Origin: Shigella phage ShigP1
Length of the DNA stretch: 64,000 bases
Direction: 5' to 3' (one strand)
Sequence record: PQ818763
Below, piece after piece: positions 57,894 to 62,537 of the stretch. The notes beneath the pieces are model-generated. The model searched no databases and had not been told where the DNA came from. It saw nothing but the letters and a program-made list of their open reading frames with translations. Every line of letters begins with the position of its first letter. The first letter of the stretch is position 1. Both the position numbers and the translations under genes were made by a program.

Positions 57894-59924
57894 TTAACCT
57901 CTATTCAATGAACATTTAGGAGAATTACAATAAACTTGATTCATAGAACCAAGCGTACAACTTTCAGCATCGCGCCACGGAATCTGCTTAAAACACTCTG
58001 AGCAGTATCCGAGGGTTGACCACATTGCTTTGGTGAAGTCAGTGCTTCGGTTTCCGTCGAAGCTGACGACAGTTTTGCGGAGAGCTGTTCGTGATTCAGG
58101 AAACACACCTGCTTTCTCAGCAGGTTCCTCCTTTTTTGGCTTAGTTGAGATTGCAAAAATACTGTTGCTACGTTTCTCAACATAAGCATCAACAACATCC
58201 TCCAGAGTGATGCCTGTCTGTTTCGCTGAGGAAGGTAATACAGTCATACGACCGATCATATCTTCAGTTACACGTAAAGCGAATTCAGGACGACGGGCGT
58301 TTGTTGTATCTGTTGCTTTAATCCAGACATAACCATCTTTGATCGTAGCATTAGACACTTTCTTCTTTACTTCTACAGCGCAGACTTTACAGATATCTTC
58401 ACCACGAAGACGACTAAGTTCATCATCGAACTCATTCTCTGTTTTAACTTCACCGCAGATTTCACAAACACCAATAGGAGTTTCCTCCTCTTCTTCCTCT
58501 TTAGGTTTAGTCAAACCTTCCAGACATTCAGGATGCCAATAGCACTGATATGCGAAGACTGCTTTAGGTGCATCCTTCCAATCAATGTGCTTATCACAAC
58601 CACCACAATCACCATGAGAGTGCGCTTCCCAGAATTTACGAGTGATAGTAACACCATTCTTGTTGACGAAACTATCATTCATATCAAAAGGGATATCATC
58701 ATCGAAGTCAGCAGTAGTTGACTCAGGCTCCTTTTTCTCCAGAGATGGGTCAACAAAACGACCTGCTGTGATCACTAAACGGACCATAGCATTGACTTCG
58801 GAGATGCAGGATACTGTCCCACGGTAAACAATTTTAGGGTCTTTCAGGGCATCCTGATAAGCCTTAATGTCTACGTTATGAACATCACCTTCGATATACT
58901 CTTGAGATTTCTCATCGTAGATATAACCAATCATCTTACCACGAGAAGGAACAGCACCGGCAGTTGCATAAGGAACAAACTCATGCGGAGTGATTTCCAC
59001 AGTCATATCGCGGCGAATATCAATGTTTCGATCGCTTGCGATTTTGTTTTGACTTACCACTGCGTTTCTTCGACGAACGTCTGCCGCTGTCACACCCGGC
59101 TTCGTGTCGTAAGGATTGCTTGTACTGCTTTTTGAGGAACTTTGATAGTTGCTTTGGCTGTAATTGTTCGAGTAGTAATTGCCCCAACGATTGACTACCG
59201 TAAAAACCGGAAGCTCGTGGGCGACCTCTTCAACCAGTGTCATGCTGTTATTAGACATGTCAAAGATATACTCTGTACCAACTTTACACTCAAAATGCTC
59301 ATCAATACGGTTCTTGTGAGACTTCGAACGCTTCAGAATCCACATCAGCATATCTTCTTCAGAAGCGCCAAACCAATCTCTGTTACAACGTGCGAGATGG
59401 AAAGGACGCTCTTCGTTACGAATGATATGAAGGCGGTTATCAGAAGCATCATGCCAGATTAAGGTGAAAGCACCATCCAGCTTTTGAATAGTCTCTGCTG
59501 CACCAATAGTGTTAATAGAGTGGCAGATGTTCTCACTATCTACCTCGAAGTTTTTACTGTCAGGTAACAGGTCTTGGTCCATCAAGGTTCCATTATGAAC
59601 CAGAGTGATGTTACCATGTTGGAAAGGATGGGCGTTCTTGGCGTTAACTGCACCTTTCGTTGCATGACGACTGTGACCAACAATCCATGAAGGTGCTACA
59701 GTGTAAGCTGTTTCACCAGTGGTGTGCTTCTTGTACTCATCTTGTAGGATGAATGCGAAAGAAGGAAGAGCTTCTTTATAAGTGAAGACTTCCTTAGTAC
59801 TTTTACGCTGACCAAAGATACCGGAGGAATGTTGTCCTCGGAATACTCCAGCATAAAAGAGTTGGTTAAATACGTCTAAATCAGTGCTTGACAGATTACC
59901 GCCAGCTAATACGATGCCACAAAT
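57894..59924 (-). CDS. Class-II (Ntn) glutamine amidotransferase domain fused to a Cys-rich C-terminal domain; probable non-AUG (ATT) start
   Basis: Manual upstream translation gives (K)I-CGIVLAGG...FRGQHSSGIF...VGHSRHATKGAVNAKNAHPF...LVHNGTL...SDSEN, the class-II GATase signature with catalytic Cys 2 codons after a stop; AGGTGG lies 8 nt before the ATT. Confidence 0.65.
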   Translation of the reverse strand: MCGIVLAGGNLSSTDLDVFNQLFYAGVFRGQHSSGIFGQRKSTKEVFTYKEALPSFAFILQDEYKKHTTGETAYTVAPSWIVGHSRHATKGAVNAKNAHPFQHGNITLVHNGTLMDQDLLPDSKNFEVDSENICHSINTIGAAETIQKLDGAFTLIWHDASDNRLHIIRNEERPFHLARCNRDWFGASEEDMLMWILKRSKSHKNRIDEHFECKVGTEYIFDMSNNSMTLVEEVAHELPVFTVVNRWGNYYSNNYSQSNYQSSSKSSTSNPYDTKPGVTAADVRRRNAVVSQNKIASDRNIDIRRDMTVEITPHEFVPYATAGAVPSRGKMIGYIYDEKSQEYIEGDVHNVDIKAYQDALKDPKIVYRGTVSCISEVNAMVRLVITAGRFVDPSLEKKEPESTTADFDDDIPFDMNDSFVNKNGVTITRKFWEAHSHGDCGGCDKHIDWKDAPKAVFAYQCYWHPECLEGLTKPKEEEEEETPIGVCEICGEVKTENEFDDELSRLRGEDICKVCAVEVKKKVSNATIKDGYVWIKATDTTNARRPEFALRVTEDMIGRMTVLPSSAKQTGITLEDVVDAYVEKRSNSIFAISTKPKKEEPAEKAGVFPESRTALRKTVVSFDGNRSTDFTKAMWSTLGYCSECFKQIPWRDAESCTLGSMNQVYCNSPKCSLNRG

Positions 59925-60003
59925 TTTCTAATCCACCTGAAGGGTAAACCCTTTCATCTAATTAACCTTTAAATTGTGCCCCTTTATCAGAGGCACCCAT
60001 TGA

Positions 60004-61107
60004 TTACAGCGCTTGCTCTAACTGATTTTCCAGATGGTCTGGAATGTACCCTGTGATATTGCTATCACTGTGACCTGACTCACGTAGTAAGTCAAAAATA
60101 GCACGGATACGCTGTTCTGGAGCGTGTCTTACTTGAGATAGGTCTGCTGTACGAAGCATAACCAAAATCTCTTGGTACAAGTTGTTAGCGTTCCCTCGGA
60201 CATACCCAAGGAAGCCATAGAAGTCTGACATAAGACGTAAGTCAACAAGAGCCTCTCCGTTGGAGTTGGTTCGACGTAAACGAATACGACCAGACTGTTC
60301 TACTTCATGAGAACGGCAATACAAAACATCACGGGCCATACAATATCCTGAATGCAAATCAGATTCATCCAGATTGTAATCCAGAGGAAGGTAAGGAAGC
60401 ATTGGGGCAAATCGTACAGTATTTAAGTGCTCAATAAACTGATCATTGCTCATATCTGCGTTATCTAAAGCCAGCTTCTTCAACATCAAGAAGCGGTTAA
60501 CCAGATTGAGAAGTTGACCACGTTTCCACTTAGGCTCACTGATACGGAACTCAATTGAACCGTATTGGGCAAGTGGCAGAAGGTTCAGAGATGTATATTT
60601 ATCCCATGAACGAACCAGACGGTTGAAGAATTCTTCACCATCGTAGTTAAATGCGTCAGAGGCATTCATTACCTGTGCTTGTACCACTGCAAACGCAGGG
60701 CAGAAATTGCTACGGTAACGATGGTAGCCTGAACACTTGAACAGCATCTTTTCATAGAAGGTCCAAGCAAGGATGGTCTTCTTGAGGATATTACTATCAG
60801 CATCCCTCATATCCATATGAACGTGAGTAGAGCAACGCCAAGTCCCCTCGGCGTGCGATTCAGCTACTGCTTCACTCAGGTTGTTGATAGCGTCTAACAA
60901 CTCCTGTCCGTTGTAAGGTCGTGAACATACCATTTCACAACCGTTACGCAGGGAACCATCCTCTGTGCAATCCCACATATCTGCTTCGATATGTTCAGAA
61001 CCTTCGAGTTCAAGTTCAATACCGACACCGCACTGAAGTGCAATTGAACTATGCGCCTCAGTTAAACGACCTTCTCGATATCCAAAAGTTTGCGCTACAG
61101 TTGTCAT
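60004..61107 (-). CDS. Amidoligase-like protein, paralogue A (glutamine-synthetase/GCS2-like motif set)
   Basis: GIELELEG, STHVHMD and YGSIEFRIS occur in the same order as the equivalent motifs in 61731-62537; family assignment is from memory. Confidence 0.45.
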   Translation of the reverse strand: MTTVAQTFGYREGRLTEAHSSIALQCGVGIELELEGSEHIEADMWDCTEDGSLRNGCEMVCSRPYNGQELLDAINNLSEAVAESHAEGTWRCSTHVHMDMRDADSNILKKTILAWTFYEKMLFKCSGYHRYRSNFCPAFAVVQAQVMNASDAFNYDGEEFFNRLVRSWDKYTSLNLLPLAQYGSIEFRISEPKWKRGQLLNLVNRFLMLKKLALDNADMSNDQFIEHLNTVRFAPMLPYLPLDYNLDESDLHSGYCMARDVLYCRSHEVEQSGRIRLRRTNSNGEALVDLRLMSDFYGFLGYVRGNANNLYQEILVMLRTADLSQVRHAPEQRIRAIFDLLRESGHSDSNITGYIPDHLENQLEQAL

Positions 61108-61730: not shown

Positions 61731-62537
61731 TTATGCTACCTGAAGGAGTTTGATCTGCTGGTCAGCTTCTTTAACGTTGTTCCCGTTAATGATTTCATGA
61801 AGCTTCTCAATCGGAAGGCGAGAGTGCAATGCCATCAGGGTGGACATATCACACTGCTGAACAACCTTGTCAACCTGATCGTAAACAAACTTACGGTTTT
61901 CACGATCACTAATCCAGAAGTTAGACAGAGAACGGTATTCAATACCATAGTCTTTATAACGGATTGCAGATGCTTTACCGTAGAGTTCTTTACGGCGAGT
62001 ATCTTTGTCCATAATTACTGCTGGGAGAGACAGGAAGTAGTCACACAACACACCCAGCATCATCTGAGTTTGCAGAGTGATATCCAAAGCACCAACTACG
62101 CCAAGATGTACGTGACCACCGGCAGTACGAAGTCCCTTATTCTGAGAAGTCGGGGATGGGTTTTTCTGACCAGTGAAGGCGTTGAAATCAGGAGTGCACC
62201 CGAAGATGAACGCTGATTCGTTAAAGGTCTTCATCTCTTCTTCAGTGAAGATGTGAGAGCTAACACCCGGAGCTGTTTCCATGTCCAGTTTGTTCAGGAC
62301 ATTATTGGTGAGATCAATACCACGTTGCATGTTATCGTTAAACGCTTCAAAACCGCTCTGTGGGTCAATATCAAACTCAGCCAGTACGTTGTCCTCTTGG
62401 AGACGAACATCCTTAGCCAGAGCGATCTTATCGTCCTTAGAGCAGCCTAATAAACCGGCTACAGAAGTGATGATACCATTACTAGTACGAACGAACATTT
62501 CAGGGTCAGAGCCGATGAGGAATTTGCGCTTAGTCAT
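61731..62537 (-). CDS. Amidoligase-like protein, paralogue B
   Basis: IGSDPEMF, GGHVHLG and YGIEYRSLS motifs. Confidence 0.45.
   Translation of the reverse strand: MTKRKFLIGSDPEMFVRTSNGIITSVAGLLGCSKDDKIALAKDVRLQEDNVLAEFDIDPQSGFEAFNDNMQRGIDLTNNVLNKLDMETAPGVSSHIFTEEEMKTFNESAFIFGCTPDFNAFTGQKNPSPTSQNKGLRTAGGHVHLGVVGALDITLQTQMMLGVLCDYFLSLPAVIMDKDTRRKELYGKASAIRYKDYGIEYRSLSNFWISDRENRKFVYDQVDKVVQQCDMSTLMALHSRLPIEKLHEIINGNNVKEADQQIKLLQVA

Follow-up and report, generated by a model that had tools for sequence, protein, structure and literature searches.

A phage gene for a putative class-II glutamine amidotransferase that probably starts at AUU, behind a conserved hairpin and Shine-Dalgarno leader

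Initiation at AUU is a textbook rarity in E. coli, known from infC and pcnB. To our knowledge, infC has not been described with a conserved hairpin abutting its Shine-Dalgarno (SD) sequence. A hairpin immediately 5′ of an SD does occur in the operator of phage T4 gene 43, where it is bound by the gene's own product, gp43; in this operator, the start is AUG and the loop sequence is defined. Compared with AUG, initiation at AUU is 6-8-fold weaker, and at junctions of the infC type, in which 3 nt separate a stop codon from the AUU, reinitiation contributes about as much as de novo initiation (PMC3592434). Excess IF3 inhibits both non-canonical starts and reinitiation (PMC2268962). In E. coli pcnB, the AUU start limits expression of the enzyme (cited in PMC3592434).

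Here we analyse a gene of Shigella phage ShigP1, a phiEco32-like Kuravirus with ES17-type sequence, within a 64,000-nt stretch of DNA (sequence record PQ818763; hereafter ‘the window’). Like infC, the gene combines a predicted AUU start with an SD and an upstream reading frame that stops exactly 3 nt before it (UAG AAA AUU in the phage), and dependence on discrimination by IF3 would be expected in both. The AUU of infC serves autoregulation by the gene's own product, for which the phage gene has no obvious equivalent, and the upstream cistron of infC, thrS, is a full gene, whereas that of the phage is a mini-ORF of 9 codons. As in pcnB, the weak AUU may keep the level of an enzyme low, but pcnB is a single host gene while the phage case recurs in ~11% of an enzyme family, where it is coupled to a structured leader. 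Like the T4 operator, the locus has a short hairpin just 5′ of the SD of an early phage gene; the phage amidotransferase hairpin, however, goes with AUU or AUC and is variable in sequence.

The features of the locus are collected in Table 1. On the minus strand, the codons around the start read ATG AAA GGG TTT ACC CTT CAG GTG GAT TAG AAA ATT TGT GGC ATC GTA, with TAG at 59930-59928, AAA at 59927-59925, ATT at 59924-59922 and TGT at 59921-59919, and the translation across the junction is *KICGIVLAGG.... A first-pass annotation of this DNA had observed that the ORF track begins the gene at a TTG although the frame is open upstream, and the ATT indeed lies 113 codons further upstream. It had also described the catalytic Cys as the second codon after an in-frame TAG, preceded only by AAA and ATT. 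The two preceding codons are as described, and the frame offers no ATG, GTG or TTG from the TAG to the Cys; the Cys codon, however, comes third after the TAG and not second. The AGGTGG that it had placed 8 nt upstream of the ATT is found there; the duplex of this SD with the anti-SD (-5.9 kcal/mol) is average for the family. When aligned with relatives beginning M-C-G-I/L-V, the ATT occupies the position of their ATG. The surrounding genes form a phiEco32-type cluster (amidoligase / COOH-NH2 ligase / GATase / ATP-grasp), which includes a match to Pfam PF14395 at 61731-62537. The terminator-like hairpin that follows the amidoligase gene shows compensatory changes between genera and between strains.

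Table 1. Coordinates of features at the amidotransferase locus (positions in the window)
Feature	Position	Strand	Description and basis
Full-length gene, putative class-II (Ntn) glutamine amidotransferase	57894..59924	-	676 codons from ATT to stop; ortholog of phi32_83; ORF and translation
Predicted ATT initiation codon	59922..59924	-	Aligns with the ATG of relatives; no in-frame canonical start after the TAG
TGT, codon of the catalytic nucleophile Cys1	59919..59921	-	Family-profile alignment to residue 1 of GlmS/PurF
Shine-Dalgarno sequence AGGTGG	59933..59938	-	Followed by an 8-nt A-rich spacer, ATTAGAAA (59932-59925); direct reading
Leader hairpin AAGGG-UUUA-CCCUU	59940..59953	-	Ends 1 nt before the SD; -4.6 kcal/mol, 3′ end at -16; hairpin scan
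Mini-ORF MKGFTLQVD*	59928..59957	-	9 codons, in frame; TAG stop 3 nt before the ATT; translation
Invariant 56-nt block	59917..59972	-	Leader, ATT, TGT and the next two bases; three-way alignment
Internal TTG 59585 / ATG 59582	59580..59585	-	Start in the ORF track and in the ES17 and Paul RefSeq records
Terminator-like hairpin GUGCCUCU-GAUAA-AGGGGCAC	59976..59996	-	After the amidoligase gene, without a U-tract; RNA fold
Amidoligase (Amidoligase_2) gene upstream of the amidotransferase	60004..61107	-	Pfam PF12224, 33.7 bits

The frame upstream of the TTG encodes the nucleophile region of a class-II glutamine amidotransferase (GATase), as had been claimed from the sequence at first reading. In a profile made from a 33-sequence family alignment (A1), the Cys encoded by the TGT aligns with residue 1 of mature GlmS (1xff, CGIV...) and of PurF (1ecb), with E-values from 1e-20 to 1e-15. 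Cys1, R86, T89, N111, G112 and D129 are invariant in A1 and match the corresponding GlmS motifs; the N-G pair provides the oxyanion-hole residues, and R, T, Asn-Gly and Asp are the conserved glutamine-site set. When translated from the ATT, the protein scores 55 bits against Pfam GATase_6 (cutoff 27) and 27.4 bits against GATase_7 (cutoff 25), versus 23.6 and 20.9 bits, both below cutoff, for the truncated model that begins at the TTG or ATG. An AlphaFold2 model (pLDDT 94.6, pTM 0.92) predicts that the N-terminal domain folds as a complete Ntn glutaminase with the four layers of the Ntn fold, and its best Foldseek match is the glutaminase domain of GlmS (1xff; E=9e-14, TM 0.69/0.70), followed by PurF, AsnS and EgtC, with 13-19% identity to solved class-II enzymes in these structure matches. 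On its Cys1, Pfam matches, predicted fold and conserved residues, we assign the protein as a putative glutamine amidotransferase of class II. It has the N-terminal Cys nucleophile, the R-x-x-T, N-G and D residues and the Ntn fold in common with GlmS, PurF, AsnB and EgtC. It differs from them in its C-terminal ~430 residues, which carry three CxxC...CxxC pairs where those enzymes have a synthase domain, and in its genomic partners, which are amidoligases and an ATP-grasp enzyme.

Across the 112 codons that follow the ATT, pS is 0.59-0.77 and pN 0.12-0.16 (pN/pS ~0.2), and differences by codon position number 16/13/59 and 21/15/66, the third position dominating. This is the pattern of translated sequence under purifying selection, in a stretch that the truncated model leaves out. 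Since these codons carry Cys1, the R-x-x-T and the N-G, the ORF track does miss the catalytic N-terminus, as the first-pass annotation had held; the truncated model is without Cys1, R86, T89, N111 and G112. A start at the internal TTG or ATG, with the upstream 113 codons as an untranslated remnant, is what the ES17 RefSeq, Paul and most other records annotate, and a proteomics table for phage SU10 likewise gives a 63.8-kDa model (PMC4281155). The SU10 study did detect the protein, but its search was made against that truncated model and could match annotated sequence only. Strong purifying selection acts on the upstream codons, which hold the whole catalytic apparatus, and the truncated product halves both the Pfam domain and the predicted fold. 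The TTG/ATG falls inside the domain and is not the true start, and we find an untranslated remnant scarcely credible.

The ATT start of this gene is in fact already on record. In GenBank EU330206, gene 83 of phiEco32 (phi32_83, ABY52884.1; Savalia et al. 2008) has been annotated since 2008 from exactly this ATT as a CDS of 676 aa, the only ATT among 128 annotated phiEco32 starts. This ortholog has ~98% identical DNA and an identical leader, and its record bears no note or experimental evidence on the start. The CDS of Bas90 is also annotated from the same ATT position. Among the records listed, 48 of the 56 with annotation truncate the gene, the ES17 RefSeq included, and gene callers have given it at least three different wrong starts. 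A search of 5.8 billion proteins returned zero close full-length Kuravirus proteins, and a metagenome scan with the pattern C-G-I-V-L-A-G-G retrieved only unrelated ‘GIVLAGG’ proteins, none of which fit the family HMM. Most public records hold the amidotransferase minus its catalytic half, and because therapy and collection studies make use of such phages, the error spreads into protein databases.

The same sequence is carried by 98 phage records, from three Gordonclarkvirinae genera and one Aeromonas phage (BUCT695, to which a second ‘Aeromonas’ record also belongs). The ATT context is also identical in 5 IMG/VR genomes, and a leader-pattern search of IMG/VR found the same 5 genomes only, with zero new leader variants. 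Rare AUU initiation, a sequencing error and recoding had been offered at first as alternative explanations of the ATT. Because the 98 phage records share the sequence, a sequencing error is excluded. The idea that an error in sequencing or assembly masks a canonical ATG draws on the rarity of ATT starts and nothing more; it is effectively refuted by a context that is identical across records sequenced independently and on different platforms, by the agreement of the IMG/VR genomes, and by the recurrence of ATT or ATC in dozens of distant family members.

The start also lies within a 56-nt block that is invariant in Kuravirus, Suseptimavirus and Nieuwekanaalvirus, in an alignment whose overall identity is 0.60 and whose next longest invariant run is 20 nt. 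Synonymous sites are 59-77% diverged across the same three genera. No pairwise comparison contains a longer exact match, and the block is unique within the window. A promoter was considered as the content of the block and rejected: the coding strand of the leader has no gp36-dependent motif (tAATGTATAtA) within 1 mismatch, and no sigma70-like site (-35/-10) was found on this minus strand.

Looking across the family, ATT or ATC precedes the Cys in 9 of 79 loci (~11%, about one in nine, in a set ranked on protein similarity alone), and these members are spread across the family tree. The occurrence of ATT or ATC before Cys1 at this frequency appears undescribed. In this first survey, eight of the nine ATT/ATC loci are without any in-frame canonical start (L060, L057, L072, L074, L076, L077, L078 and L083), and because of these eight we regard ATT/ATC initiation as the common solution in the family. 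SD duplexes are at or below -5.8 kcal/mol in all 13 ATT/ATC leaders first examined. As a test of compensation for a weak start codon, SD strength was weakly positive at most, the difference between non-AUG and ATG groups being modest (p=0.026, phylogeny uncorrected).

Some Ntn amidotransferases are known to be made with a propeptide that is cleaved off, and that of B. subtilis PurF has 11 residues. An in-frame ATG at 59957, absent from the first-pass annotation, opens the mini-ORF that ends at the TAG before the ATT, and recoding would here mean that translation starts at this ATG, that the TAG is read through or suppressed, and that a 12-residue MKGFTLQVD-X-KI is autocatalytically removed to yield Cys1. 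The ATG does lie exactly 12 codons before the Cys, in the window as in BUCT695. Moreover, the collinear leaders of L030 and L055 have a sense codon (TAT, GAG) at the position of the TAG, with the frame open from an ATG at -12 codons, and therefore a propeptide route exists in some relatives. In the window, however, the TAG interrupts the frame between the upstream start and the Cys; it is invariant in the 98 records, the hosts have no known amber suppression, and the position of the SD suits the ATT and not the ATG. The eight members named above offer no in-frame canonical start at all. Both BUCT695 substitutions in the mini-ORF (MKGLTLQAD*) are non-synonymous, so that no selection on its peptide is visible, and the G-T-L likeness between leaders arises because the hairpin nucleotides GGG...ACCCTT encode it. 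We consider a propeptide reached by readthrough very improbable. Given that eight of the nine other ATT/ATC members of the first survey are without an in-frame canonical start, recoding is unneeded and unparsimonious, and of the three initial alternatives AUU initiation is the one that the evidence supports.

The leader hairpin can be extended to UGAA(A)GGG/CCCUUCA (59956-59938). Its stem is kept in BUCT695 with a changed loop, and L055, L060 and L030 have collinear hairpins with different stems. Because the stem is invariant within the ES17 clade, its support comes only from this between-lineage comparison. We defined a leader class by a stem of 4-7 bp that abuts the SD and has its 3′ end ~12-17 nt before the start codon, and the window leader, with AAGGG-UUUA-CCCUU ending at -16, falls within it. 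Among unique leaders, a hairpin is present in 21 of 38 non-AUG versus 8 of 121 ATG leaders (p=5e-10), and hairpins ending at -17..-12 are present in 17 of 38 versus 2 of 121 (p=1e-10), in statistics that treat leaders as independent where many are related. By the criteria used, 17 of the 38 non-AUG leaders are without a hairpin. The stems are of 21 different sequences, and the control with shuffled leaders yields 3.1 +/- 1.7.

In an alignment of the class, 54 cells are 100% paired, against at most 49% in slid controls, and 5/5 pairs show compensatory changes, the alignment being derived from a covariance model and hence fitted to structure. An earlier model, R1, was too sub-type-specific to reach the ES17 leader, and one iteration led to R2. 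Built on distant members only and without ES17-type sequences, R2 has its top match in the 64-kb window at 59960-59920 on the minus strand (21.6 bits, E=0.003, a rough E-value from a shortened calibration), and on 121 ATG-type loci it gives 1 marginal match. Its alignment puts the window hairpin on the covarying stem and the window SD in the SD columns of the model. The window hairpin is itself weak (-4.6 kcal/mol), and folding of the whole leader was no better than that of shuffled sequence (z -1.9 to +0.4). Rfam 15 matched no known family over 59600-60200 (best 14-17 bits versus gathering scores of 44-70), and genes elsewhere in the window combined hairpin, SD and ATT/ATC at the rate of control codons, with no further case. 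The hairpin-SD-AUU/AUC layout appears to be a conserved and undescribed leader class within the phage GATase-II family; literature searches on phiEco32 and ATT (phiEco32's own papers aside), on AUU in phages and on stem-loops and SDs with non-canonical starts yielded nothing on this gene or module.

One possible role for a hairpin in this position is that of a protein-binding translational operator like that of T4 gene 43 rather than a passive enhancer, through which a phage protein, perhaps the amidotransferase or a partner enzyme, might repress or time translation. This would be compatible with an AUU start. The layouts are alike, a short hairpin standing next to the SD on its 5′ side in both. 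Conservation is extreme at the nucleotide level, in loop and flanks too, and goes beyond the need of a 5-bp stem. Some loop motifs are also found repeatedly: UUUA is shared by ES17, L055 and L060, and loops containing GUU by L057, L242, L238, L264, L078 and L241. Stems and loops nonetheless differ widely between lineages, so that any protein that binds the hairpin would have to co-evolve, and no candidate RNA-binding protein was identified. We hold an operator to be unlikely.

The mini-ORF bears on a further reading, which refines that of an AUU start: reinitiation coupled to the mini-ORF could be the main route, de novo initiation at the AUU being minor, and the CAG (Gln) codon over the SD could then confer glutamine sensitivity. 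The geometry is that of thrS-infC (UAA GGU AUU), where reinitiation accounts for about half of expression (PMC3592434). All of the mini-ORF, from ATG to TAG, is invariant in the three genera, and the ATG and TAG are kept in BUCT695. A ribosome at the UAG would open a possible hairpin between SD and AUU (G[U/C]GGAUU-AGAA-AAUUUGU), and the U-to-C change of BUCT695 strengthens the pairing of this hairpin. Against a main role for reinitiation, a comparable mini-ORF is absent from most of the family's ATT/ATC leaders, BUCT695 is without the AAGG upstream of the mini-ORF ATG, the UG of this ATG can pair inside the extended hairpin, and the block, being invariant, shows no covariation. Mini-ORF-coupled reinitiation as the main route is rather doubtful on this evidence.

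We consider it highly probable that the gene is translated from the AUU at 59924-59922, in a dedicated initiation region that would comprise, in order, the hairpin AAGGG-UUUA-CCCUU, the abutting SD AGGUGG, the 8-nt A-rich spacer and the AUU. The AUU would be decoded by initiator fMet-tRNA, after which deformylase and methionine aminopeptidase would take off the Met, as happens in E. coli GlmS and PurF, exposing Cys1 as the N-terminal nucleophile and leaving CGIVLAGGNLSSTDLDVFNQLFYAGVFR as the N-terminal peptide. Hairpin and SD most likely offset the weak start codon, and we infer that the hairpin may do so, for example, by keeping the SD accessible or stacking onto the SD:anti-SD helix. Because hairpins 5′ of the SD had only moderate effects in reporters, and mostly inhibitory ones (PMC3592434), an enhancing role for the hairpin is not established. 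The weak AUU would hold output low and make it sensitive to IF3. In ES17-type phages, ribosomes terminating at the mini-ORF stop may also reinitiate at the AUU, as at thrS-infC, since the mini-ORF ends 3 nt before it.

More speculatively, and as a tentative possibility, the leader may represent an undescribed class of cis-regulatory RNA, a dedicated module of translational control through which phages make synthesis of a glutamine-hydrolysing enzyme depend on the host's IF3 level or initiation fidelity, or on a hairpin-binding phage protein. For the ES17 lineage, the dependence could instead be on translation of the 9-codon mini-ORF, with its Gln codon over the SD. If this is true, the weakness of the start codon would be by design and not by accident. 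A family with ATT/ATC starts and a covarying hairpin offers a natural, replicated system on the upkeep, compensation and use of weak start codons, and it raises the question of whether phages read the IF3-dependent start-codon stringency of their host.

The window matches Escherichia phage ES17, a phiEco32-like podophage (Kuravirus, Gordonclarkvirinae), at 100% identity, and its class-II glutamine amidotransferase gene lies on the minus strand with a start region that reads, 5′ to 3′, ...TTAG ATG AAA GGG TTT ACC CTT CAG GTG GAT TAG AAA ATT TGT GGC ATC GTA... The mechanical ORF list begins the gene at TTG 59585, 113 codons 3′ of the ATT. On reading the sequence, the first-pass annotation was correct about this late start and about the ATT, the in-frame TAG and the AGGTGG before it. 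What it missed is an ATG in the same frame at 59957, from which a 9-codon mini-ORF (MKGFTLQVD) runs to the same TAG.

Elements of the amidotransferase start region
Feature	Coordinates	Strand	Basis
In-frame stop TAG	59930-59928	-	sequence read
AAA	59927-59925	-	sequence read
ATT	59924-59922	-	sequence read
TGT (Cys)	59921-59919	-	sequence read
AGGTGG, 8 nt 5′ of ATT	59938-59933	-	sequence read

In more distant relatives, namely Salmonella phage 7-11, Cronobacter phages GAP52 and vB_CsaP_009, a Vibrio phage and IMG/VR contigs at 63-64% identity, the gene begins with ATG TGT (M-C-G-I/L-V). The ES17 ATT aligns with this ATG and thus occupies the orthologous start position; the ES17-type leader corresponds to the leader of GAP52 and family locus L036 plus an insertion of ~16 nt that bears the 3′ hairpin arm and a new Shine-Dalgarno sequence (SD). 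The ATT context is shared without change by 98 phage records: E. coli/Shigella phages of three genera account for 96, and Aeromonas phage BUCT695 for two (the GenBank and RefSeq entries of one phage). This excludes the sequencing error previously offered as an alternative. Five IMG/VR genomes have the identical context as well. In GenBank EU330206 (phiEco32), the ortholog phi32_83 is annotated from exactly this ATT, the only one among 128 CDSs (112 ATG, 13 GTG, 2 TTG). The BASEL phages, LAMP and the SU10 RefSeq entry follow this annotation; ES17, Paul, ECBP2, SU7, KBNP1711, EP335, BUCT695 and most others are annotated from various downstream codons, with loss of Cys1. Our analysis supports the ATT start as real, and since it is already in public annotation, the result is a confirmation as regards the start codon itself and a correction of widespread mis-annotation. 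Proteomics of SU10 detected the amidotransferase with 9 peptides and is uninformative on the N-terminus, because the listed mass of 63.8 kDa is that of the truncated model (PMC4281155).

The codons omitted by the ORF track carry the catalytic half of the enzyme. The 676-aa product of the ATT start scores above the Pfam cutoffs for GATase_6 (55 bits, cutoff 27) and GATase_7, whereas the truncated product falls under both and matches the second domain half only. In a 33-homolog profile, the Cys aligns with the first residue of mature GlmS from E. coli (1xff, CGIV...) and with that of PurF (E 1e-20 to 1e-15), and R86, T89, N111-G112 and D129 are invariant. AlphaFold2 models residues 1-241 with confidence (pLDDT 94.6), and the top PDB match of the model is the GlmS glutaminase domain (E=9e-14, TM 0.70), followed by PurF, AsnS and EgtC. 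Over the 112 codons from the Cys to 59586, comparison of ES17, KBNP1711 and ECBP2 gives pS of 0.59-0.77 and pN of 0.12-0.16, with 16/13/59 and 21/15/66 differences at the three codon positions. Judged by this excess of pS over pN and the weighting towards third positions, the 112 codons are translated and under purifying selection. Domain integrity, fold and selection thus bear out the earlier claim that the track loses the catalytic N-terminus, and contradict the rival reading in which the truncated protein is the real product. The preferred reading of that annotation, rare AUU initiation, is supported by the start position, the lack of alternative starts and selection on the downstream codons.

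Starts of this kind recur across the family. Among 80 IMG/VR loci, ranked by protein similarity to ES17 alone, the catalytic Cys is preceded by ATG in 67, by ATT in 7, by ATC in 2 and by TTG in 2, with one M-C-C and one unresolved; eight of the nine ATT/ATC loci have no ATG, GTG or TTG in frame between the upstream stop and the Cys. Further ATT cases were found independently in BUCT695, Logan contig L029 (TAG GTG ACT AAA ATT TGT) and MAG contig L030. ATT/ATC members occupy ~9-10 separate places on a neighbour-joining tree; the tree is rough, but this scatter requires either repeated gain or repeated loss. Adding two rankings centred on ATT-type members gave a pool of 170 unique leaders (121 ATG, 28 ATT, 10 ATC, 9 TTG, 1 GTG, 1 M-C-C); as this pool is enriched by design, the unbiased ATT/ATC estimate stays 9/79. 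At one locus (L063:149-420), the leader module and ATC TGT GGA TTA GTA GGT GT are followed by ~216 nt of unrelated sequence, and a second copy, TTG TGT GGA TTA GTG GGT GT, runs on into the amidotransferase. The arrangement suggests insertion into the first codons, accompanied by a ~17-nt duplication, and the ‘TTG start’ there may therefore be secondary.

The leader itself is exceptionally conserved. In the three-way alignment of ES17, KBNP1711 and ECBP2, an invariant run of 56 nt spans 59972-59917; no other invariant run in the 1.6 kb exceeds 20 nt, against a three-way identity of 0.60 overall. The block is the longest exact match in each pairwise comparison and occurs once within the window, and single-base variants of KM01 and Bas93 fall outside it, in the upstream terminator-like hairpin. 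Although BUCT695 is a member of another family (Grimontviridae), with an amidotransferase that falls beside those of the ATG-type GAP52 and 7-11 on the tree, it carries the Kuravirus block (window 59911-59962) with only two substitutions, UUUA to UUAA in the loop and AGGUGG to AGGCGG in the SD. This mosaic suggests leader exchange or extreme conservation. An AT-rich motif, roughly TTTAAATGTAAA(T)TAGA, lies 5′ of the start in Grimontviridae-type loci (L009, L010, L013, L019, L020 and L011, which is BUCT695); its Kuravirus version is TTTAAAGGTTAATTAGA (59958-59975, -), and it resembles the gp36 promoter motif tAATGTATAtA but does not match it.

Within this leader, a hairpin abuts the SD. The ATC-start locus L055 is collinear with ES17 codon by codon (ATG at -12, UUUA-loop hairpin, SD, GAT, a variable codon, AAA, ATC/ATT TGT), with stem CCGUA/UACGG against AAGGG/CCCUU in ES17, and L060, L074, L057, L072, L076, L078 and L030 each have another stem in the same place. 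Counting hairpins of -3 kcal/mol or stronger that end 8-26 nt before the start codon in unique leaders, we found them in 21/38 ATT/ATC and 8/121 ATG leaders (Fisher p=5e-10); for ends at -17..-12 the counts are 17/38 and 2/121 (p=1e-10). The 21 hairpins are 21 distinct sequences, and shuffled leaders gave 3.1 +/- 1.7, maximum 8. A covariance model seeded with five leaders of identical geometry hit the start site in seven additional ATT/ATC leaders and in none of 121 ATG-type loci. In an 11-sequence alignment, itself fitted to the model, 54/54 cells are paired and 5/5 pairs have compensatory changes, against at most 49% pairing with slid partners. Rebuilt without any ES17-type sequence (R2), the model has its top match in the 64-kb window, both strands, at 59960-59920 (-) (21.6 bits, E=0.003), aligning the AAGGG/CCCUU hairpin to its stem and AUUUG to its start; BUCT695 scores 19.2 bits, and the 121 ATG controls yield one marginal match (E=0.9). 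By these comparisons the hairpin is conserved, covarying and specific to ATT/ATC members. The median SD is slightly stronger in ATT/ATC than in ATG leaders (-7.3 versus -6.1 kcal/mol, p=0.026, leaders treated without phylogeny correction). The leader region has no Rfam match, and among the other genes of the window the module is no more frequent than at control codons. The second-best R2 match in the window (60750-60800, +, 16.1 bits, E=0.11), antisense in the amidoligase gene with a 17-nt loop and ending in AUC AG, is probably spurious. In four IMG/VR loci (L253, L254, L255, L277), a second sub-type missed by R2 lies ~45 nt 5′ of the start: a hairpin ending at -24, then G(N)ACGGATAAYGGAGATTTTATT, then ATT TGT.

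Mechanistically, fMet-tRNA would initiate at the AUU, and the Met would then be cleaved off to leave Cys1 at the N-terminus, as in GlmS and PurF, both of which have Cys as the first residue of the mature chain. The weak codon would lower output and make it IF3-dependent: reporter measurements put AUU 6-8-fold below AUG in strength (PMC3592434), and both reinitiation and initiation at non-canonical codons are inhibited when IF3 is in excess (PMC2268962). Together, hairpin and SD may either offset the weakness of the codon or regulate its use. The hairpin may act passively, as an enhancer or insulator, or may be, by analogy, an operator of the T4 gene 43 type, a hairpin bound by protein. In ES17-type phages, 3 nt separate the mini-ORF stop from the AUU, as in thrS-infC (UAA GGU AUU), where reinitiation and de novo initiation have roughly equal shares in the output (PMC3592434). 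We treat mini-ORF coupling as a lineage-specific addition and not the core mechanism, because most other ATT/ATC leaders have no comparable mini-ORF. Readthrough of the TAG from the ATG at -12, giving a 12-residue propeptide, would fit the open frame in L030 and L055, but is unparsimonious given an invariant TAG and the many family members without an upstream start.

The phiEco32-type cluster comprises a COOH-NH2 ligase (PF14395), Amidoligase_2 (PF12224), the GATase, DUF7195 and an ATP-grasp enzyme, and was reportedly predicted by Iyer et al. 2009 to make or modify a peptide or metabolite. The small DUF7195 gene (57658-57891, -) lies directly 3′ of the amidotransferase, with 2 nt between that gene's stop and its own start, and is kept beside it in several phages. 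The amidotransferase C-terminus (residues ~250-676; 57894-59180, -) has three zinc-ribbon-like CxxC...CxxC pairs with acidic linkers between them, and no Pfam match in these ~430 residues; shorter relatives (~400 aa) keep one pair, at the C-terminus. Directly after the amidoligase stop lies a hairpin, GUGCCUCU-GAUAA-AGGGGCAC (59976-59996, -), whose pairing is kept by compensatory changes in ECBP2 (GCGCUCU/AGGGCGC), KM01 and Bas93; as it has no U-tract, it may be a weak terminator, processing site or stabiliser. On the opposite strand, within the first codons of the gene, a strong sigma70-like promoter match (TTGACA-16-TACGAT, 10/12; 59888-59915, +) would drive antisense RNA over the leader; ECBP2 does not keep the -35 element, and chance alone would produce about one match of this kind in the region. 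Two phages unrelated to each other, L030 (883-1308) and Pseudomonas phage UFV-P2 (ORF24; PMC3890496), have an HNH_3 homing-endonuclease gene inserted between amidoligase and amidotransferase. The junction adjoins the highly conserved M/I-C-G-I-V codons and may be a site of repeated homing, which could help explain leader movement between lineages.

We found no description in the literature of the family-wide recurrence of ATT/ATC starts, of the link between such starts and a covarying hairpin directly next to the SD, or of the ultra-conserved 56-nt leader with its infC-like stop-3nt-AUU junction, and all three merit experimental follow-up.
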